Below are positions 4,895 through 54,301 of a DNA stretch of 64,000 bases, in pieces; position 1 is the stretch's first letter, and every line of letters begins with the position of its first letter. Position numbers and translations under genes: made by a program. Location: positions 192,001 to 256,000 of the forward strand of contig CAWANH010000028.1 of the NCBI GenBank assembly GCA_963783375.1. Direction: 5' to 3'. The DNA is from Candidatus Eiseniibacteriota bacterium (lineage in GTDB: Bacteria > Eisenbacteria > RBG-16-71-46 > JABDJR01). The notes under the pieces were generated by a model, which saw only the letters and a list, made by a program, of their open reading frames with translations, had not been told where the DNA came from and did no database searches.

Positions 4895-6589
4895 TCAACC
4901 GACTGATTCGGTCCGGTTGTCGCCCCGTGGAATCGGGCTGGCCCCCGGCGGGGGGACTCCGGTGCGATGGATTGCCGCCGCACCGACCGACGACGCCTCC
5001 CCGGGTTCGCGACGAGGCGTCCTAGGCGACGCCTCCCCGGGTTCGCGACGAGGCGTCCTAGGCGATGCTTCCCCGGGTTCGCGAAGAGGCGTTCTAGGCG
5101 ATGCTTCCCCGGGTACACGATTCGGCGATCCTGGCGATGCCTCCCCGGATTCGCGATGACGCGCCCTGGGCAGTGCTTCCCCGGGTACACATTGAGAGGG
5201 GAGCTCCGCGCACTTCCGTTCGATGTGCGCTTCCGCGCGCTCCCGCGCGCGGTCCCCCATCTCGTGGATGGCGCGGTGGCAGCTCGCGCAGAGGGTCACC
5301 AGGTTTTCCATCGTGTTCGCTCCCCCGGCCGCACGCGGTGACCGGTGGTGCACGGCGAGGAACCGCGAGCTTCCGCACCCCGCAACGCAACAACGGTGAC
5401 CATCCCGCTCCAGGACCGCCCGGCGGAGCGACGGCGGAATCGTCGCCCGGTTCCGCTTCCCGGGGCGATGAACCTGCGCATCACAGAGGACGGCTTCCAG
5501 TTCGGCGGCACGGAGGGACTTCGACCCGCGGCCCGTCACGACAGCGCCCGTGTTGCAGTCCGGGCACTGCTGAACGACGACCTGGTAGGTCCGGAGCGGC
5601 GCTCGCCAGGTCGCCTCGGGTGGGCCGGCCGGAGCTTCGTGGACGCGGATGCCGCCTGCCGCCCTGGGCTCAGGTTCGGCGGCACCGGCGTGACCGGGCC
5701 GCACCCCGGTCCGGGCGGAACATCGCGTTCCAAGGACGCCCGGCCCCCGCCTCGACCTTGCGTCTCCGCTCGTCGGCATTTTGGCGGCCGGCCCGGTTCC
5801 GGGAGTAGATGCGTTTCCAACCGTGGACGGCGTTTCATCAAAGGTGATGGGGCGTTCGCCAGCGGCCACCCGCCCCCGGCCCTGCCCGAGCAGCGCGGCG
5901 AGCCCGGCCACGACCAGGTCTTCCACGGGGCCCTTCCAGCCTTCCTTGCGGAGCCTCTCCACCAGGGCGCCATACTCCGCGTACTGGAGCGCGGGGAAGC
6001 GGAGCCGGACCTCCTCGGGCATCGCGCGAATCAGGTCGGGCACCTCGGGGCCCCGAACCACGACGCCATTGCCGGTCGGCGGGGCGTCGTTCGCCTCGGC
6101 AGGCTTGTGTCCGGGCTCCTCAGTGGCCGCCAGCGAGGTTAGAGCGAGACTCCCCTGATCCCGCCCGGGACCACGAGCCTCCCGCGCCCGCCCCCGGGCG
6201 ATCGCGATCTTCTTCTCCAGCGCGCGGCGGCTCGATCGCTTCGCTTCGCTGACCCAGGCGCGTTCGGTCTCGGGTGTGGCCACCCTCACGACCTCCCTCG
6301 CCTTGGTCCAGGGCATCTCTCCGGCGGCGAGAGATCTGTGAAGGATGGGCAGCTCGGCCAGGGACCCCGCGAGGCGGATGTAGGCGGAGCATCGGCTCCT
6401 GGAAAACCCGTGTTGTTCGGCGGTGTAGGCGTAGATCGAGGTGTAGCCGAGCTCGAGGTAGAGCCTGCGGCGAAGGATGTCGGAGAACCAGAGGACGAGG
6501 TTCTTCCGCGCAGCCTCAGCTTCTGTGAGCGTATGACTGAATCGCTCGTGGGCCCGGCGCGCGGGCAGGTTCGGTTCGAATTTCGGCAT
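4895..6589 (-). CDS. HNH endonuclease with DUF222-like N-terminal region (564 aa)
   Basis: C-terminal IPPSLRRAVLERDGHRCCVAGC...VHH...GGANTMENLVTLCASCHRAIH HNH/Zn motif; N-terminal LYLELGYTSIYAY...SLAAGEMPWTKAREVVRVATPETE typical of DUF222-type HNH proteins; GGAAGG RBS and promoter upstream of ATG 6589. Confidence 0.85.
   Translation of the reverse strand: MPKFEPNLPARRAHERFSHTLTEAEAARKNLVLWFSDILRRRLYLELGYTSIYAYTAEQHGFSRSRCSAYIRLAGSLAELPILHRSLAAGEMPWTKAREVVRVATPETERAWVSEAKRSSRRALEKKIAIARGRAREARGPGRDQGSLALTSLAATEEPGHKPAEANDAPPTGNGVVVRGPEVPDLIRAMPEEVRLRFPALQYAEYGALVERLRKEGWKGPVEDLVVAGLAALLGQGRGRVAAGERPITFDETPSTVGNASTPGTGPAAKMPTSGDARSRRGPGVLGTRCSARTGVRPGHAGAAEPEPRAAGGIRVHEAPAGPPEATWRAPLRTYQVVVQQCPDCNTGAVVTGRGSKSLRAAELEAVLCDAQVHRPGKRNRATIPPSLRRAVLERDGHRCCVAGCGSSRFLAVHHRSPRAAGGANTMENLVTLCASCHRAIHEMGDRARERAEAHIERKCAELPSQCVPGEALPRARHRESGEASPGSPNRVPGEASPRTPLREPGEASPRTPRREPGEASPRTPRREPGEASSVGAAAIHRTGVPPPGASPIPRGDNRTESVG
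4991..5190. repeat. 36-bp tandem repeat (5.5 units) in the HNH 3' end, encoding (E/V)PGEASPRTPRR repeats
   Basis: Units start at 4991, 5027, 5063, 5099, 5135 and 5171; first two identical, others progressively diverged; core tgcttccccggg. Confidence 0.9.
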
Positions 6590-6630: not shown

Positions 6631-6666
6631 TACCAGGAGTATGCCTGGTAGTCATCGATATGTCAA
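6631..6666 (-). promoter_or_regulatory. Sigma70-type promoter of the HNH gene with the -10 box enclosed by an inverted repeat
   Basis: Minus strand TTGACA (6666-6661), 17 nt, CATACT (6643-6638); TACCAGG/CCTGGTA arms at 6631-6637 and 6644-6650; lies in an AT-rich patch. Confidence 0.75.
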
Positions 6667-6722: not shown

Positions 6723-8009
6723 GTGCGTCCCCGGGGAAGCAATGTTCGCAATAAAGACCGCGCAACAAACATCCGCCGCCATTCAGCCATCGATCGACCG
6801 ACCTGGGGGATTGGACACGGCTCACGGACGCGGACCCGCGGGCGCGACGCCACCGACCCCCGTGCGTCCCCGGGGAAGCAATGTTCGCAATAGGGAATCC
6901 AATGCGGTGTGGTGGTCGGGGGGAACGAGAGGGTGGGCGCACGGCGGCTCGGACCCTGGGGCGGCCGACCGGGCCGGCCCTGCCCCCGAGCGAGGCGCGA
7001 ATCTGAAGGCGTGATGGGTGCGAAGCGGGTCCCGTCGCGCCTGAAGAGCGAGCGAAGGATCGTCCGGTGGACGATCCGAGGGAGCGCTGAGCGCCGAGAC
7101 GAGGGGGCACCGGCCCGGAGGCCGCACACGCCGACCCCCGTGCGTCCCCGGGGAAGCAATGTTCGCAATAGGGAATCCAATGCGGTGTGGTGGTCGGGGG
7201 GAACGAGAGGGTGGGCGCACGGCGGCTCGGACCCCGGGGCGGCCGACCGGGCCGGCCCTGCCCCCGAGCGAGGCGCGAATCTGAAGGCGTGATGGGTGCG
7301 AAGCGGGTCCCGTCGCGCCTGAAGAGCGAGCGAAGGATCGTCCGGTGGACGATCCGAGGGAGCGCTGAGCGCCGAGACGAGGGGGCACCGGCCCGGAGGC
7401 CACACACGCCGACCCCCGTGCGTCCCCGGGGAAGCAATGTTCGCAATAGGGAATCCAATGCGGTGTGGTGGTCGGGGGGAACGAGAGGGTGGGCGCACGG
7501 CGGCTCAGACCCCGGGGCGGCCGACCGGGCCGGCCCTGCCCCCGAGCGAGGCGCGAATCTGAAGGCGTGATGGGTGCGAAGCGGGTCCCGTCGCGCCTGA
7601 AGAGCGAGCGAAGGATCGTCCGGTGGACGATCCGAGGGAGCGCTGAGCGCCGAGACGAGGGGGCACCGGCCCGGAGGCCACACACGCCGACCCCCGTGTA
7701 TCCCCGGGGAAGCAATGTTCGCGATAAGGAATTTATCGCGACGTGGTGGTCGGGGGGAACGAGAGGGTGGGCGCACGGCGGCTCGGACCCCGGGGCGGCC
7801 GACCGGGCCGGCCCTGCCCCCGAGCGAGGCGCGAATCTGAAGGCGTGATGGGTGCGAAGCGGGTCCCGTCGCGCCTGAAGAGCGAGCGAAGGATCGTCCG
7901 GTGGACGATCCGAGGGAGCGCTGAGCGCCGAGACGAGGGGGCACCGGCCCGGAGGCCACACACGCCGACCCCCGTGTATCCCCGGGGAAGCAATGTTCGC
8001 AATAAAGAC
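6723..8009 (+). repeat. Tandem array of four 278-bp units bounded by a shared 31-37-bp motif
   Basis: Motif gtgYRtccccggggaagcaatgttcgcRata starts at 6723, 6862, 7140, 7418, 7696 and 7974 (spacing 139, then 278 four times); units differ by a few SNPs and one 20-nt variant segment. Confidence 0.95.
6969..7118 (+). ncRNA. Candidate structured RNA element (150 nt), first of four array copies (others at +278, +556, +834)
   Basis: Closing stem 6969-6987/7103-7118, hairpins 7007-7042, 7057-7077 and gcgc-tga-gcgc; four compensatory pair changes versus the copy at 54152-54301. Confidence 0.55.
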
Positions 8010-9060: not shown

Positions 9061-10128
9061 CTACGCCCGCTTCAATCCCCGCATCTTCTCCGAGTCCTGG
9101 ATCCGCGTCACCACGTCCACGTAGTCCACCACCCCCTGCTGGTAGAGCCCCAGGAGGTCGTCGTCCAGGAGCTTCATCCCGTCCCGGTAGTGGGTGGCGA
9201 TGGCGTTGTTGATCTGGTGGATCTTCCCTTCGCGGATCAGGTTCGAGATCGGGGAGTTCACGAACATGGTCTCGCGGGCGCAGATCCGCCCCGGGGCGTC
9301 GGTCCGCCGGAGCAGCGTCTGGGACACCACCACCTTCAGGGTCAGGGAGAGCCGGGTCCGGATCTCCGCCTGGTGCTCCAGGGGGAACACGTCGATGATC
9401 CGGTTGATGGTCTTGGCCGCCGACTGGGTGGACAGGGTGGAAACCACGATGTTTCCGGTCTCCGCCGCGGTCAGCGCCACCTCCATGGTCTCGCGGTCCC
9501 GCATCTCCCCCACGAAGATGATGTGGGGCATCTGCCGGAGCGCCGCCTTGAGCCCCCGCACGTATCCCTTGGTGTCGAACCCGATCTCGCGCTGGTCGAT
9601 CAGGCACGTCTTGTTCTTGAACATGAACTCGATCGGGTCCTCGATGGTGATGACGTGCTTGGGGACCCCGTGCTCCGCGTTCAGGTACTCGATGTACGAG
9701 GCGATGGTGGTGGACTTCCCCGCCCCGGTGGGGCCGGTGATGAGGATGAGCCCGTTGGGCTTGTTCACCATCTCCATGAGCGTCCGGTCCGAGAGCCCGA
9801 TGGACCGGTAGTCCGGAATCTCCAGGGGCACCAGCCGGAGCACCGCGGCCACCGTCCCCCTCTGCTGGTAGACGCTCACCCGGTAGCGGGCCAGGTTGGG
9901 AACGTGGTAGCCCACGTCCAGCTCGCGCTCGTTCTCGAAGATCCGGCGCTGGTCCATGGTGAGGAACTGGTAGACGAGTTCCTGGGACTCCGTCCCGCTC
10001 AGGACCCACTCCGGATCGAGGGGCTCCAGGGCCCCGTGTACGTGGTACGTGATGGGCGCCCCGGCGGAGATGATGACGTCGCTGGCCTGGCGGTCTACCG
10101 ATTCGCGGAGGATCTCCATCACGTCCAT
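9061..10128 (-). CDS. pilT: Type IV pilus retraction ATPase PilT/PilU family
   Basis: ASDVIISAGAP, GLILITGPTGAGKSTT, ITIEDPIEF, AALRQMPHIIFVGEMRDRET, AAETG; start MDVME at 10128 (the track ORF fuses it to the secretin N-terminus). Confidence 0.93.
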   Translation of the reverse strand: MDVMEILRESVDRQASDVIISAGAPITYHVHGALEPLDPEWVLSGTESQELVYQFLTMDQRRIFENERELDVGYHVPNLARYRVSVYQQRGTVAAVLRLVPLEIPDYRSIGLSDRTLMEMVNKPNGLILITGPTGAGKSTTIASYIEYLNAEHGVPKHVITIEDPIEFMFKNKTCLIDQREIGFDTKGYVRGLKAALRQMPHIIFVGEMRDRETMEVALTAAETGNIVVSTLSTQSAAKTINRIIDVFPLEHQAEIRTRLSLTLKVVVSQTLLRRTDAPGRICARETMFVNSPISNLIREGKIHQINNAIATHYRDGMKLLDDDLLGLYQQGVVDYVDVVTRIQDSEKMRGLKRA

Positions 10129-10133
10129 GGCGA

Positions 10134-11418
10134 TTACCCCTGGTCCTTGATGAGGGTCGGCGTGATCTCGATCACGAGATCGGTCTGGCTGGTCTCGATC
10201 CGGTAGTGCCGGAAGAGATACCCCAGGAGCGGAATGTCGCCCAGGAGCGGGACCTTCTTCACCGTCTCCTTGCTCTCCTCCTGGAGGAGCCCGCCCAGGT
10301 AGAACTTCTGCCCGTCCTGGACCCGCACCACCGAGGTGGCCCGGCGGGTGGAGGTCTCGGGAAGGTCGTTGTCGGGCCCCACGAAGGCGATGATCGTGCT
10401 CACCTCGGGGCTCACCTGGGTGGTGATGAACCCGTCGTCGGAGATCCGGGGGACGATGTTGAGCTTCACCCCCACCTCGACCTTCTCGAGCTGGACGGTC
10501 TGGAAGGCGCCCCCCTGGACCCCGGCCGAGGAGAGGCTGGTGATCACCACCGGCACGGTCTGGCCGATGAAGATCTCCGCCGGCTGGTTGTTCATGGTGG
10601 TGATCTTGGAGTTGGCCAGGAGCTTGGCCTTCCCGTCGGTGATCAGGGCGTCGAGGGTCACCTCGAAGGACTCCACCTGGCGGTAGATGTCGCCGGTCTG
10701 GTCGTACTTGATGAAGGGGAGCTTGCTCGGGACTGGCGTCGTTCTGGGAATCGCCGGGGTTGGTCTCGGTGATCACCTGGGTCCACTTGGTGATCTTCTC
10801 CCAGTCGATCCCCAGCTCCTTCAGGTCGGTGGTGTTCACCTCCACCAGCCGGGCCTCGAACATGACCTGCTCGGGCCGCTCGTCGAGGTCCTGGACGATC
10901 CCGTCCACCTCCTCGATCACCGACTGCGGCGCCTTCACGATCACCCGGTTCCCGGAGACGTAGGCCCGGGCCTCCTTGGAGATCACCTCCAGGGCCTTCA
11001 CCACCTCGTCGGCGTTGGCGTACTGGAGGTCGTAGATCTTGGTGGTGAGTCCGGTCTGCTGGGCGAGACGCTGGGGGTCGGCCACCAGGATCGACCCGCC
11101 CACCCGCTCGTAGCCCAGGCCGGCGGCCCGGACCACCAGGTTCAGCGCCTCGCTGAACGGGGTGTCGTGGAGATGGATGCTGATGGGGCGGCCCTGCACC
11201 TCGGGGGCGGTCACGATGTTGAGACCGCTCCGGTCGGCCAGCACCCGGAGCACCGACACCACCGGGGTGCTGTCCGCGTCGAGGCTGATCAACTGCTGGT
11301 CGCTCATGGCCGCGGTCCCCGGCTGGGCCGGAGCCGGGCCCGGGGTCACCGCAAACGCGACGAGGACCAACCCGAGAACCAGGCATGCCCTCCAGATTCC
11401 TGGTTTCAACGCCATCAC
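10134..11418 (-). CDS. pilQ: Secretin PilQ/GspD family, split by a frameshift near 10730
   Basis: Signal peptide, N0/N3 domains (ISLDADSTPV...LQYANADEVVKAL...QVMFEARLVEV...ELGIDW); second frame has GKAKLLANSKITT...VGVKLNIVP...KVPLLGDIPLLGYLF. Confidence 0.88.
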
Positions 11419-22329: not shown

Positions 22330-25300
22330 TCACGGCAGGATCTGGATCTTCCGCGTCCAGGCCTCGGAACCGATCTTCATGCGCACGAAATAGATGCCGC
22401 GCGCGACCCGCCGGCCCGAGGCGTCCATCCCGTCCCAATGCACCTCATGGTGGCCGGGACCCGTGGCCTCGACGCCGAGGGTCCGCACCCGCCGGCCGCG
22501 CACGTCGAACACCTCCACCGTGGCCCGGACCGCCCGGGGGGAGTCGAACCCCAGGCTCAGGGGCCCACGGGTGGGATTCGGATAGGGGTCCCCCACCTGG
22601 AGGAACGGCAGGATCGGGGTCGTGAACCGATCGTAGGGAATCCGCACGGTCAGGAGCGCGGAGCGGGCGCTCTCGTTGCCGGCCACGTCCACCGCGGTGA
22701 CCGCATAGCAGTAGTCACGGCCGGGGATCACCTGGTCGTCGGCGATCGAGGGCAGGGCGAGGAGGTCGCGGTAGAGGACCAGGGGCGTCGTCCCCACGGT
22801 CCCCCGGGCCCGGTAGAGCCGGTAGTGATTCATGTCCGGCTCGGGGGCGGGATCCCAGGAGAGATCGACGCGGCTGGGGTCCGGGACGCCTCGAAGCCCC
22901 TGGATCGCCCCGGGAGGCTGGGTGTCCGGGGGCTCGGGCACCACGATCCGGGCGACGGCCACGTTGCTGATCGGGCTTCGGTTCCCCGCCTCGTCGGTGG
23001 CGGTGAGCGCGAAGGACAGATCCACGCCGGTGGGAAGGCCCTCGATCTGCAGGATCTCCAGGTAACCGGCGCCGTGCGGCGCGGGGACCCCGGCAATCGG
23101 GGTGGCCTGGGGCCAGGTGACCCCGCTCAGCGGCCCCGAACTCCAGCGTACGTCGTAGAGGGCGGCCTGGCCGGAGGAGCCGTCGTCTCCGGGTGCCGAC
23201 CAGCTCAAGACCACCACGTAGGTATCGGCGACCGCGGCGGCGAGATCCTGGACCCGGCCGGGGGCCGCGACGTCCGCGGAGGCGCCCGTCCGTCCGGTGG
23301 CGGGATTCCCGAGGGCGCTCCAGTTTCCGGCGTCGTCCACCGACCGGACACGGAGCACGTAGTCCGAGGCCCCGGAGAGACCGCCCACCAGGACGGTCTC
23401 CGCGGCGCCCGGCGTCCGCGGGACGGCGGTCGGGACGAGCGCCGGCCGCGTCCCAGGATCCGGCCGGGAACGAGGTCCCGGAAAGGATCCGAAGATCGTA
23501 GGCGGTCACCGTCCCCCGCTGGTCGGCGGGCGCGGTGAAGGTCACGGTGAGGGTGTGCTCGGTGCTGTCCACCACCGCCAGATCGCCGACCGGCGCGGGG
23601 CCGCTGGTGTCGGGGGGAACCGGGGTGGTTCCGGTGGCCAGGTTGCTGAGCGCCGAGGGATTCCCGGCGTTGTCGACCGACCGGAGCCGGAAGCTGTAGG
23701 TGGAGCCGGAGACCAGCCCGTTCACCGTGACGGTCTCGGTGGCCCCGGGGGCCTGGGGCGACTCGGTGGCGGCCCCGGGGGAGGTGCTCCAGATCGATGG
23801 GTCGAAGCTCGCCCCGCTCACGTAGCGCAGGTCGTAGATCTTCACCGTCCCCTGGGAGTCGGCGGGGGCGGTGAAGGAGAGGGTGAGCCAGGTCTCCCCC
23901 GCCGCGGCCACCGCCAGGTCGGCCACCGGAGCCGGGCCGGTGACGTCGACCTGGGACGCGGGGGGCGTGTCGGTGGTGAAGCTCACCACATTGCCCATCG
24001 CGCTCAGGTTCGGAACCTCGTCCTGGGACTTGATCGCCACGAAGTAGGTGGTGGACGGAGCGAGCCCGGTGACGGTCATGCTCTGGGCGGTTCCCGCCGT
24101 CGACGGCGTGGGTAGCCCGGACAGCGGCGTCGCGGCGGCCCAGTTGGCCTCGGTCAGGGCCGCCCCCGATCGGCGACCCTCGTAGAGGGCGGCGGTCCCG
24201 CTCGAACCGTCGTCGCCGGGGGCGGTCCAGGCCAGGAAGACCGACGTGGTCTCCGCCCAGACCACGTGCAAGTCGACGATCGCGGCCGGCGGGGTGGTGT
24301 CGCCGGGGGGCGGGCCGTCGGGGGTGATGATGCGGAAGTAGTAGGGACCCAGGGGGGCCTCGTTCCCGGCCTCGTCCACCGCCTTCACCGCGAAGTAGTG
24401 CTGGGTTCCGGGCAGGAGCCCCCCGATGTCCAGGCTGTCCCACATCCCCGGGTAGGAGGGCACGATCGCGTTGGGAATCGGAGTGGCCGCGGCCCATTCC
24501 GCCTCGCTGAAGAACTTGTTCAGGGAGTGACGGATGAGGTAGGAGCTCGCGCGCCCGTTCAACCCGTCGTCCCCGACTGCCATCCATTTGAGCCGGCCGG
24601 AGTTGGGGCCGAGATCAAAGCCCCAGTAGTGCTCGGTGTTGGCGGGGGGAATGACGTCTGGCGGGGGAGGGTCGACGATGCGGGGACCGATGTAGGCGTC
24701 CCACGCCCCGATATTCGGGAGACCGGCCTGGGCGGTCAACGCGGTGGGGTTCGCGTTCACCACCACCGAGGCCGCAGCGTAATCGCGCCGCCAGATGGAC
24801 AGGCCGCCGACCGAGTAGGAATAGGCCGGCCCGTCCGGGTCCCCCAGATGGATGTCGAACTCCGGCTGCCACCAGAGCGACCCGTGCAACCGCCAGTCGT
24901 TGTCGATGCTGTAGTAGCCGTCGCCCAGGAGGGTGCTTCCCAGGGTGAACCGCTTGTGGGCCTGGAAGCGGCCGGTGGTGTCGGGCTCGGTCTTGGTCCC
25001 GCTGGCGTAGGTGTTGATGACCGCCACCTGCCGGGGGGCGGCGCTGAAGTTCGCGAGGTTGGTGAAGTACGAGGTGGTGCTCGCATACATCCACTTGGTC
25101 CAGAGGGCGGCGCTGGGAATGAGGGTGGAGGAATACCCGTTGAAGGGGAAGTTCTCGATGATGGTGCCGTTCAGGGCGGAGTAGTAGTGGTTGGGGCCGT
25201 TCCCCATCACGATGGCCGAGGATCCGAGGCGCGCCCGCACTGCCTGGGTGAGCGCGTCCTCGCCGGACTCCCACCAGGTGTCGAGCTGGGCGCTGGGATC

Positions 25301-25918
25301 GGCCACCCCGTTCCGGTCGCTGTCGATGGGCGAGGAGAGGCCGCCGTTCAGCCAGCTGATGTTCTCCCAGACGTCGTCCAGGAGCACGCCGTCCCACTGG
25401 CCGGTCTGCCAGATCGCCTCGTCCACGAAGCGGGCGAACCAGGTCTCGTAGTTCTCCCCGAGCGAGTTCACCGGGCCGTTGGGGGTCAGGTTGGCGCTCC
25501 ACTTCCCCGGCCAGTCCTCCACGTGGCTCCCGTCCACCGCGTAGAGCCAGAAGTCGCCGTCCTGGATCCCCTGCCAGTGCCGGTGGAGGACGGTGGCGGG
25601 GGGGCGCTCGTAGGCGGCGGCCCCGGTCCCGTTGCTGGCGATGAAGGCAAGGATCTTGATGTCCGGGTTCAGGGCCCGGATCTGGTCCAGTTCCCCGGGA
25701 TTGTCGTAGGGGAAGTCCGCATCGAGAACCAACACGTCGTACTTCGCGATGAGCGGGATTTCGTCCTGGGAGAGGGTGCCGGAGAGGTACCAGCCGAAGA
25801 TCCGGGGATAGCCGGTTCGGGCGTCGGCGGGCCGAGGGGCGAGGGTTCCGTACAGGATCCCCAGGAAGAGTCCGGCAGCGATCAAAGGGGGCAGTCGCCT
25901 GGGCAGAGTTGTGGGCAT
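22330..25918 (-). CDS. Secreted putative glycoside hydrolase with about six FN3 repeats and FlgD-Ig/T9SS-like tail, frameshifted near 23440
   Basis: Signal peptide; TIM-barrel-like region (IRALNPDIKILAF, WDGVLLDD, NGTIIENF) resembling GHL15-type domains; repeated WTAPGDDG...Y..R...W..A FN3 units; PNPTRG...FDVRGRRVRTL...WDG...GIYF tail in second frame. Confidence 0.75.
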
Positions 25919-26333
25919 GGGCCGTTCTTTCCGGTGGTGTCGCTGACTACCGATGAATTTCGAGCCCGTCGCGCCGTCGGCCCCCCTGTCCCGCTCGCCA
26001 GTGGCGAATCCCGGGGGTCCCGGCGGAGGCGCGGGGGATCCATAGCTGGTTTTCGGCGGGATAGCGTGCAGAACGAGGCTTCGGCGGAACGGCCGGTCCG
26101 TCGATGGGAACTTTGCCCCGGCGGGAGGCGCACTCAACGGCCCGTCAGTGCGCGGTCGGTCTGGGATACATGCCGGGGGGTCCGGGCCCTCCTCCGGAGG
26201 ATCGGGGGAGCCGACCCGGCGGAGGCCCCTCGTTGTCGCTGGGCGCCGAGTGGGGATCATAGGGGTTTTCCGGTATCCTGGGGGGGGCCGGATGACGCGG
26301 AATGAGAATCTCTCGCGGTCGGGGGGGGGGAGC

Positions 26334-27800
26334 ATGGCCAAGCCGGTATTCAAAGGACGAGTGATCGCCCACGTGGACATGGACGCGTTCTACGCGTCGA
26401 TCGAGGTCCACGACGACGAGACCCTGCGCGGGTTGCCGGTGGTGGTGGGCGGGCCGGCGGAAAAGCGCGGGGTGGTGGCCGCGGCCTCCTACGAGGCCCG
26501 GAAGTTCGGCGTCCATTCCGCCATGCCGATGGGGCGCGCCCAGTCCCTCTGCCCCGACCTGGTTCGCATCTCTCCCCGCATGGCCCGCTACCGGGACGTG
26601 AGCGTGATGATCATGGGGATCCTCAAGGGCTTCTCACCCCTGGTGGAACCGCTCTCCCTGGACGAGGCCTTCGTGGATCTCACCGGAACCGAACGCGCCT
26701 TGGGCCCGCCCGAGCAGGCCGCCGAGCAGATCCGGGCGGCGATCCGGGCCGAGACCGGCCTCACCGCCTCGGTGGGGATCGCCCCCAACAAGTTCCTGGC
26801 CAAGCTGGCCTCCGACGAACGCAAGCCCGACGGCGTGACCCTGGTCGCCACCGAGACCGCGGTGGAGTTCGTCCAGGGACAGCCGGTGGAGCGGATCTGG
26901 GGGGTGGGCGAGAAGATGGCGGGGAAGCTTCATCGCCTGGGGCTTCACCGCGCGCGGGACATCGCCCAGGCCGAGCCGTCGTTCCTGAAGCGCCACTTCG
27001 GGCTCATGGGATTGCGGCTGTATGAACTGTCGTGGGGCCGGGACGACCGGCCGGTCGTCCCGGAAACCGAGGCCAAGTCGGTGAGCCACGAGGTCACCTT
27101 CGCCAAGAACCAGAAGCACCTGGAGCTCTTGCGGGGGGTGCTGTCCGGGCTCTGCCAGCAGACCGCGCGGCGGCTCCGGCGGGCGCACCTGGTGGGGCGG
27201 ACGGTGAACCTCAAGATCCGCTACGGCGACTTCGCCACCGTGACCCGGCAGGAGGCGCTGGGACACCCCACCGACGACGACGGGGAGATCTATGCGGCGG
27301 CGGGGCGGCTGCTGGAAGTGGAGCGCGCGGTGGATACGCGGCCGGTGCGGCTCCTGGGGGTCGGGGTCACCGGGCTGTTGCGGCAGACGCAGTTGAACCT
27401 GGACCTGTTCGGCGGGCCGGCGGGGGGATCGGCGGGAGGCGCGACCGGAGGCGGCTCAGGGTCGGCGGCGGGAGGCGGAGGCTCGGACGCGGCGAAAGGC
27501 GGAGGTTCCGCGGGCACCGGCGCTTCCGGGGGATGGGGCGGAGCTTCCGGGGGATCGGGCGGCGCATCCGTCCCGTCCCCACCGGGTGACCACACTTCGA
27601 GACCCCGCGTCGCCGGAGACGGCGCGAGGACGACCGGCTACGGCTCTCTGCGCGCCCGAGACACCGCCGACGGCGGCGCCGGTCGCCGAGAGGCCCTCAA
27701 TACCGCGCTCGATCACTTGGCCGACCGCTTCGGGCCGGATGCGGTCCGCCGCGCGCGGTCGCTCCCCGGAGAGAAGCCTGACGAGGACCTGGCGGGGTAG
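26334..27800 (+). CDS. dinB: DNA polymerase IV with Gly-rich C-terminal insertion
   Basis: HVDMDAFYASIE, ASYEARKFGVHSAMP, SLDEAFVD, NKFLAKLAS, VRLLGV, QLNLDLF clamp-binding motif; alternative in-frame ATG at 26292. Confidence 0.95.
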   Translation: MAKPVFKGRVIAHVDMDAFYASIEVHDDETLRGLPVVVGGPAEKRGVVAAASYEARKFGVHSAMPMGRAQSLCPDLVRISPRMARYRDVSVMIMGILKGFSPLVEPLSLDEAFVDLTGTERALGPPEQAAEQIRAAIRAETGLTASVGIAPNKFLAKLASDERKPDGVTLVATETAVEFVQGQPVERIWGVGEKMAGKLHRLGLHRARDIAQAEPSFLKRHFGLMGLRLYELSWGRDDRPVVPETEAKSVSHEVTFAKNQKHLELLRGVLSGLCQQTARRLRRAHLVGRTVNLKIRYGDFATVTRQEALGHPTDDDGEIYAAAGRLLEVERAVDTRPVRLLGVGVTGLLRQTQLNLDLFGGPAGGSAGGATGGGSGSAAGGGGSDAAKGGGSAGTGASGGWGGASGGSGGASVPSPPGDHTSRPRVAGDGARTTGYGSLRARDTADGGAGRREALNTALDHLADRFGPDAVRRARSLPGEKPDEDLAG

Positions 27801-27819: not shown

Positions 27820-27922
27820 GTGTTCCCCCGGGTGAACGATCCTTGATGGGAACCCATTATCGCGAACATTGCTTCCCCGGGGGCACAACTCTCATTGCTA
27901 ACATGTTGCACCTGGGTGCAAC
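27820..27922. repeat. Dispersed copy of the HNH-array boundary motif (inverted pair) between convergent genes
   Basis: 27857-27886 reverse-complements to gtgcccccggggaagcaatgttcgcgataa (cf. 7696); partial copies at 27820-27833 and 27894-27922. Confidence 0.8.
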
Positions 27923-53991: not shown

Positions 53992-54131
53992 GTGCGTCCC
54001 CGGGGAAGCATCCTTTATTGCGAACATTGCCTCCCCGGGTGCGCATCCGCGCCCAGGCGCTTCAGGTCCGGCTTCGGTGTGTCCCCGGGGAAGCACTTTT
54101 TATTGCGAACATGAGGTGTACCCGGGTGCGC
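53992..54131. repeat. Cluster of HNH-array boundary motifs in alternating orientation
   Basis: gtgcgtccccggggaagca 53992-54010; reverse copy with tail 54014-54046; gtgtccccggggaagca 54079-54095; degenerate reverse copy 54100-54131. Confidence 0.85.
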
Positions 54132-54151: not shown

Positions 54152-54301
54152 AGGGGCCGGCCCTGCCCCTGAGCGAGGCGCGAATCTGAAGGCGCGATGG
54201 GAGCGGAGCGGGCCCCATCGCACATGAAGAGCGAGCGCGGAAACGTCCGGTGGACGTTTCGAGCGAGCGCTGAGCGCCGAGACGAAGGGGCACCGGCCCC
54301 A
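54152..54301 (+). ncRNA. Solo copy of the 150-nt structured element of the 278-bp array
   Basis: Ungapped alignment to 6969-7118 (offset 47183) with compensatory stem changes and conserved purine-rich linkers. Confidence 0.55.

Follow-up and report, generated by a model that had tools for sequence, protein, structure and literature searches.

A dispersed intergenic repeat of an Eisenbacteria family, predicted to fold into a Y shape and possibly spread by a multi-copy HNH nuclease

The stretch of DNA analysed here (hereafter the window, 64,000 nucleotides in length) contains, next to a gene for an HNH protein, a 150-nt sequence that is repeated in tandem and recurs once more in a distant gap. 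The question raised by this locus is in which form the sequence acts and by what means it has been spread. The sequence, called the Y-element below, is a real repeat that is under selection, restricted to one family and mobile. Its copies form a repeat family with covarying stems, it is gained or lost at orthologous sites, and it is co-located with short palindromes, called BOX, and with HNH genes. We propose that it is a dispersed intergenic repeat that folds as Y-shaped single-stranded DNA (ssDNA) and is spread together with BOX by a multi-copy DUF222-like HNH nuclease. We give this combined reading about an even chance of being correct.

Four copies with identical sequence are found on the + strand at 6969..7118, 7247..7396, 7525..7674 and 7803..7952. 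They belong to a tandem array of four 278-nt units (6853..7964, +), each composed of BOX, spacer and Y-element, and units 2–4 differ from the first one by 2, 3 and 12 bases, respectively. BOX is an imperfect CCCGGG-centred palindrome with an A/T-rich tail, and six such sites accompany the array (6723..8004, +; starts at 6723, 6862, 7140, 7418, 7696 and 7974). The solo Y-element (54152..54301, +) is located in a divergent intergenic gap, with three BOX sites of mixed orientation directly 5' of it (53992..54112), and a lone BOX site with no Y-element is present at 27857..27887 (−). The HNH gene (4895..6589, −) encodes a DUF222-like protein of 564 residues and is one of five paralogues in the genome. 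It is divergent from the array, as stated in the preliminary description, and its 3' end contains 36-nt in-frame repeats (4955..5222, −) that carry degenerate BOX copies (PGEASP). Elsewhere in the window we noted a nine-copy 18-nt tandem repeat (2612-2833), a 785-residue ORF with an unusual fusion of STN, Secretin_N and a type II/IV secretion ATPase domain (9061-11418, −), and a GHL15 glycosyl-hydrolase-like protein of 1221 residues with fibronectin type III domains (22715-26380, −).

The alignment of 6969-7118 with 54152-54301, on which the preliminary description was based, is indeed gapless, with 20 differences in 150 positions. Its four double changes are reproduced (6970/7117 C-G to G-C, 6987/7103 C-G to T-A, 7058/7076 G-C to A-T and 7060/7074 T-A to A-T), as are the conversion of the wobbles 7012/7037 and 7015/7034 to Watson–Crick pairs in the solo copy and the breaking of its outer pairs 7008/7041 and 7010/7039. 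The two copies thus align as described, but what had been taken as one of a distant pair is really one of four identical tandem copies and one of 26 matches genome-wide.

Read by hand, the + strand of the element gives a three-way junction with nearly continuous helices, in which a trunk (P1–P3) meets the arms P4 and P5/P6 and in which there are six tandem G·A steps. A conserved Y shape is accordingly the predicted fold of the purine-rich strand. Instead of the three inner hairpins proposed earlier, there are two terminal hairpins on a three-way junction, and what had been called purine-rich linkers fits better as six tandem GA/GA steps, facing each other within continuous helices. The tip of P4 (7020..7033, +) consists of a GCGAAGC mini-hairpin followed by a conserved GGG bulge and GGG-N-CCC, while the tip of P6 (7063..7071, +) is TCC-NGN-GGA, with an outer stem that covaries; the central G of the P6 loop is kept in all 76 copies, the TCC/GGA around it being a search anchor. 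These two tips are the best-conserved features, with the reservation that both GGG/GGG-N-CCC and TCC-NGN-GGA doubled as search anchors for the wider copy set. The conserved bulge is GGG; the CCC bulge noted earlier varies among copies (CC, CCA, CG, AATT).

That the fold is under selection and belongs to one strand, the + strand, was claimed from the two copies and holds in the larger set. Folded as RNA, the + strand is far better than its shuffles (z of −7.15 and −6.29), and folded as DNA it gives z of −4.19 and −5.04. In an alignment of 17 copies, 84.2% of the cells pair, compared to 36–47% in slid controls, and 20 of the 61 pairs change on both sides, which none of 500 shuffles reached. For P5/P6, where 47 distinct cores were drawn from six genomes and metagenomes, helix pairs occupy the top five places among 465 column pairs and seven of the top ten; since the copies are related, these covariation figures are not probabilities. 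The central tandem has G·A and A·G in 40 of the 47 cores each, with G-C as the replacement in six and C-G in seven, and these swaps fix the register. The 6970/7117 pair, compensatory in the window copies, belongs to a column with poor conservation in the family as a whole. In the window copy, 11 of the 12 GA dinucleotides are in a Py-GA-Pu context. Such steps form stable sheared pairs, and tandem G·A pairs also occur in RNA.

In the 4.7-Mb genome of the window (G000, with a GC content of 69%), an iterated profile gives 26 matches at 18 loci, all 26 of which are intergenic according to the genes called by a crude gene finder. Five further genomes of this family (those other than G000 are labelled G001, G002 and so on) contain relatives of the element. 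The matches of a covariance model are strong in G002 and G003; in G001, G004 and G006 they are weak and, when read individually, keep the same core. A rod-shaped version with the P4 arm only is present at 20 places in G004, and G007, with a completeness of 75%, has three P4-arm sites and no HNH match. In the phylum, the core pattern occurs in four of 206 genomes, all of them in the family, and its reversed control in none. With the covariance model, the element is found in three of the 151 genomes of the phylum that were scanned; as 18 candidates were scored per genome and G001 was missed, this is a weak test of its absence from other families. A general core pattern retrieved eight metagenome stretches, seven of them distinct, and nothing from viral contigs; the narrow pattern had no matches in either collection, the P4-arm patterns had none in viral contigs, and plasmid and phage searches returned short chance matches only. 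Two structural peculiarities of the relatives may be mentioned: a CCCGGG palindrome is inserted within arm P4 of the Y-element at three G004 loci (L152, L155 and L158), and a G002 contig (L321:1-260) begins with the element inverted with respect to G000, either by local inversion or by assembly fold-back.

Gain or loss at orthologous sites, a feature of MITEs, is seen at all three sites where both flanks are still adjacent in a relative: the element is there in G000 and missing in relatives, a comparison that shows the difference without telling gain from loss (two further sites gave no usable orthologous comparison). In G002, the closest relative, the gap at C28:690134 is 67 nt long and contains nothing but a perfect CCCGGG-centred palindrome. 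At C28:1498079, the gaps are 35 and 18 nt in G001 and G003, while G000 and G002 hold the element between two palindromes, and at C29:1290020 the element is absent in G001 and G003. Neither target-site duplications nor terminal inverted repeats were seen by eye, the empty sites being too diverged for exact ends. Partial tandem duplications of the 5' or 3' part of the element are common.

A CCCGGG-centred palindrome lies within 500 nt at 13 of the 18 element loci in the genome of the window, and counted by gaps, it is present in 13 of 17 element gaps vs 49 of 653 gaps (P 9e-13). Ten of the 20 BOX clusters are without a Y-element, and a BOX-only array with 15 motif matches was noted at L040 (G000:C28:377448-378405). 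Across Eisenbacteria and Krumholzibacteria records, CCCGGG-centred palindromes are found in and around HNH genes, and at HNH loci GCCGGC-centred ones match them in frequency (94 vs 92). Eight of the 80 HNH loci were dropped as duplicates before these counts and the GA/GNA and P4-arm counts. In many pairs of HNH paralogues in G001, the shared unit ends at CCCGGG palindromes. We also observed that such a palindrome is often in frame just before the Cys-rich segment of the protein (columns 500-530 of the homologue alignment), where it is read as TRVH, TRVN, PRGK or PRGD, and that its genome-specific arms recur in the flanks.

The HNH protein is composed of a ParB/Noc-like helical domain, a two-helix middle domain, a Cys-rich segment and the HNH domain, and the His, Asn and Cys columns of the latter are invariant in all 34 homologues. 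As modelled, the N-terminal domain resembles the DNA-binding domains of ParB, Noc and KorB with middling scores (for the ParB-like match, Z is 7.5 and the rmsd 2.9 over 92 residues, with a Foldseek E above 0.1). At E 0.05, Pfam DUF222 is found in none of the 34 aligned proteins and HNH in all 34; PF02720 occurs in three of 120 homologues among the matches listed, and in the Atlas clusters matched, 21% and 42% of the members have DUF222. Five relatives have between 2 and 11 HNH loci each, and multi-copy DUF222-like HNH proteins are estimated to occur in ca 2700 stretches of the genome collection.

Of the 41 HNH loci, 13 have the element or its P4-only version at a distance of at most 2.5 kb (2/5 in G000, 4/11 in G001, 0/2 in G002, 2/11 in G003, 5/7 in G004 and 0/5 in G006), where ca 0.8 would be expected by chance. 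This enrichment is overstated, since paralogues duplicated along with their flanking DNA are not independent cases; L237 and L247, for instance, are 98.75% identical over 4 kb. The P4-arm counts in this comparison are limited to copies read individually, since the loose P4-arm rule gives many chance matches genome-wide. All full or rod copies near HNH genes point away from the gene, and at L253 there is one copy on each side. At 11 of the 13 element-bearing loci the element is downstream on the coding strand, and in both G000 cases and for one G004 copy it is upstream of the HNH gene on the opposite strand. On the other side of the ledger, 16 of the 18 element loci in G000 are far from any HNH gene, and no full element is near the five HNH loci of G006 or the two of G002. 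None of 76 HNH loci outside the family has the element, which means that the nuclease does not need it, and beside these genes there is no general GA/GNA enrichment either. In G001 and G003, the region upstream of the orthologous HNH gene contains repeats other than the Y-element; the tandem repeats upstream of this gene differ from species to species (L241:4150-4380, L266:4290-5100). As to the transposase that is usual for such repeats, Y1 (PF01797) is found in none of the eight family genomes (75–100% complete), and REP_Tyr_transpos (NF047646) has no match in the window's own genome. It is likely that the multi-copy HNH nuclease spreads the element in its place.

Concerning the polymer, a C-GNA-G triloop caps the P4 arm in 46 of 69 copies (12/19 in G000, 22/24 in G001, 1/3 in G002, 2/8 in G003, 3/4 in G004, 1/4 in G006 and 5/7 in metagenomes), compared to ca 10% of shuffled sequences and, for the opposite strand, 2 of 69, although a few of these matches may not be the apical loop. 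For the loop and covariation counts, seven of the 76 rows, which are 3'-only tandem duplicates, were dropped to give the 69. The GNA loops are GAA, GCA and GGA, that is, with A, C or G as the middle base, and sit on several different stems. On the folded strand, GNRA on at least four pairs occurs in two of the 69 copies and cUNCGg in none, and the ten UNCG-pattern matches on the opposite strand are UGCG or UCCG. The GNA loop is absent from 23 of the 69 copies, and the NGN loop of P6 is also not GNA. In PMC13037366, the DNA mini-hairpin is described as forming with GNA alone of the 64 triloops, the RNA counterpart tested being much weaker; r(GCGAAAGC) melts at 39 °C vs 76.5 °C for the DNA.

A plus-strand RNA, as the wobbles had been taken to indicate, would have to be a structured RNA (a 3'-UTR stabiliser, a terminator aid or a small RNA) that is dispersed merely as a repeat. 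A fold confined to one strand, with z of about −7 as RNA, is compatible with it, and so is the fact that 12 of the 18 loci are downstream of a same-strand gene, three of them within 60 nt, with six loci being convergent and two divergent; the two polymers are also hard to separate bioinformatically, as PMC5737381 points out. However, the loops are GNA triloops with RNA tetraloops almost absent, and at six of the 18 loci, among them the two of the window, no gene on the same strand lies upstream. The loci between co-directional genes are sense in six cases and antisense in four. We found no promoter-like or terminator-like site for the + strand at the array; the sole promoter-like site near it, a sigma-70-like TTGACA-17-CATACT (6638..6666, −), faces the HNH gene and away from the array. 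That the element is of no known Rfam family was anticipated and is borne out by covariance-model scans, in which neither the element nor seven loci of relatives gave a match at gathering; the only sub-threshold match is sR3, with 14.7 vs 41 bits. The wobbles themselves do not show RNA, because G-T wobbles fix the strand and not the polymer. With no Rfam match, no promoter and a gene orientation that is not fixed, folded ssDNA is likelier than RNA. We regard the RNA explanation as unlikely, and the ssDNA or REP-like role, which the preliminary description had kept as a fallback, fits better. Judged from the sequences, the element quite probably works as folded ssDNA.

Even as ssDNA, the fold could be read by a host factor, as a primase, restart or SSB-exclusion signal, and be carried only as a passenger by the HNH/BOX system. 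Mini-hairpins are known from the priming sites of phages and plasmids and are poorly bound by SSB (PMC13037366), the majority of copies have no HNH gene nearby, and the HNH family extends far beyond the range of the element. Against this stand the lack of conservation of copies at orthologous sites, the strictly outward orientation at HNH genes, and a trend, based on weak skews, of 12 of the 18 loci away from the template of the lagging strand. We find this explanation decidedly unlikely. HEARO/omegaRNA works with IscB, and TnpB has a 3' RNA. An RNA partner of the HNH protein along these lines could be co-transcribed at 11 of the 13 element-bearing loci, and the HNH domain scores best against IscB chains. 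The match, however, covers ca 60 residues of HNH only, with 48 bits for NF040563 (IscB) against a cut-off of 175, there is no RuvC-like region in the structure model, the element precedes the gene on the other strand in both G000 cases and for one G004 copy, and the loops are of DNA type. As the element also has no fixed position on the ORF strand, HEARO/omegaRNA-IscB was rejected as a class, and an RNA partner of any such type is very unlikely. Least probable of all, and in our view barely credible, are neutral GC-rich inverted repeats, in which arm-to-arm conversion would keep the symmetry and slippage would amplify the copies. The frequent partial tandem duplications and the GC-rich genome would suit them, but conversion would erase mismatches, and in three genera the G·A tandems, the GGG bulge and the GNA loop have been kept despite the turnover of the stems.

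Among known systems, the closest is that of REP, BIME and REPIN-RAYT, with which the Y-element shares its intergenic and multi-copy nature, mosaic tandem arrays, clustering at a partner gene, and a strand-specific folded DNA with a conserved bulge (PMC8266576, PMC2817692 and PMC3116915). The differences are that the Y-element is a branched fold of 150-200 nt whereas REP is a hairpin of 20-40 nt, that its alignment shows no GTAG-type foot tag, and that the RAYT transposase has as its candidate counterpart the multi-copy HNH protein. It is most likely a REP/BIME-like structured ssDNA repeat, probably spread by the HNH protein. The REP13E12/DUF222-HNH loci of Mycobacterium are similar in having dispersed HNH genes with a DUF222-like N-terminal domain. 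They are listed as repetitive elements in PMC10589994, and neither palindromic ends nor folded elements were found described in the literature on them. The DNA mini-hairpins of the G4 origin, ssiA and N4 promoters have the same caps, GCGAAGC, GCGGAGC and CCGAAGG (PMC13037366), but in the Y-element the cap is on a large chromosomal three-way junction with many copies. The DUF1874 motif and attC are likewise repeated structured motifs that possibly act as ssDNA, the former being described as a rare case of ssDNA more complex than a hairpin (PMC5737381); the Y-element differs in having no ORF cassettes between its copies and no Rfam match. An integron attC or CRISPR array was rejected, as there are no distinct ORFs or unique spacers and the 278-nt units differ by 2–12 bases. 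In the literature outside the 224-motif supplement of PMC5737381, no description of the Y-element or of HNH-linked folded repeats was found.

Coming back to a repeat spread by the HNH nuclease, a possible course of events can be formulated, of which every enzymatic step (binding, nicking, copying and pasting) is inferred. The HNH protein would bind double-stranded BOX via its ParB/Noc-like helical domain, and the HNH domain would nick nearby. Repair or strand-displacement synthesis could then free the purine-rich strand, which would fold into the Y, held by the tandem G·A pairs and the GNA mini-hairpin. The fold would be read at the arm with the GGG bulge and GGG-N-CCC, the minimal part kept beside HNH genes, and may mark or protect the copied strand. 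Pasting at another BOX, or local re-copying, would finally account for the solo copies, for the array of 278-nt units and for the partial duplications of the 5' or 3' part.

One can also speculate further that DUF222-like HNH genes are themselves unrecognised nick-and-copy mobile elements, with palindromic operator ends and outward Y-shaped G·A ssDNA folds that the HNH protein reads, the repeat being their non-autonomous end. The outward folds would then resemble the terminal hairpins of ssDNA replicons. This idea is a tentative one, and we consider it rather doubtful.

Natural ssDNA folds that go beyond a single hairpin have seldom been documented. In that of the Y-element the covariation is clear and extends to the exchange of G·A tandems for Watson–Crick pairs. 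The palindrome and the folded arm are concrete candidate substrates for the large, uncharacterised group of DUF222-like HNH proteins, and they make it a testable question whether the spreading of REP-like repeats, the task of RAYT, can also be carried out by an HNH nuclease.
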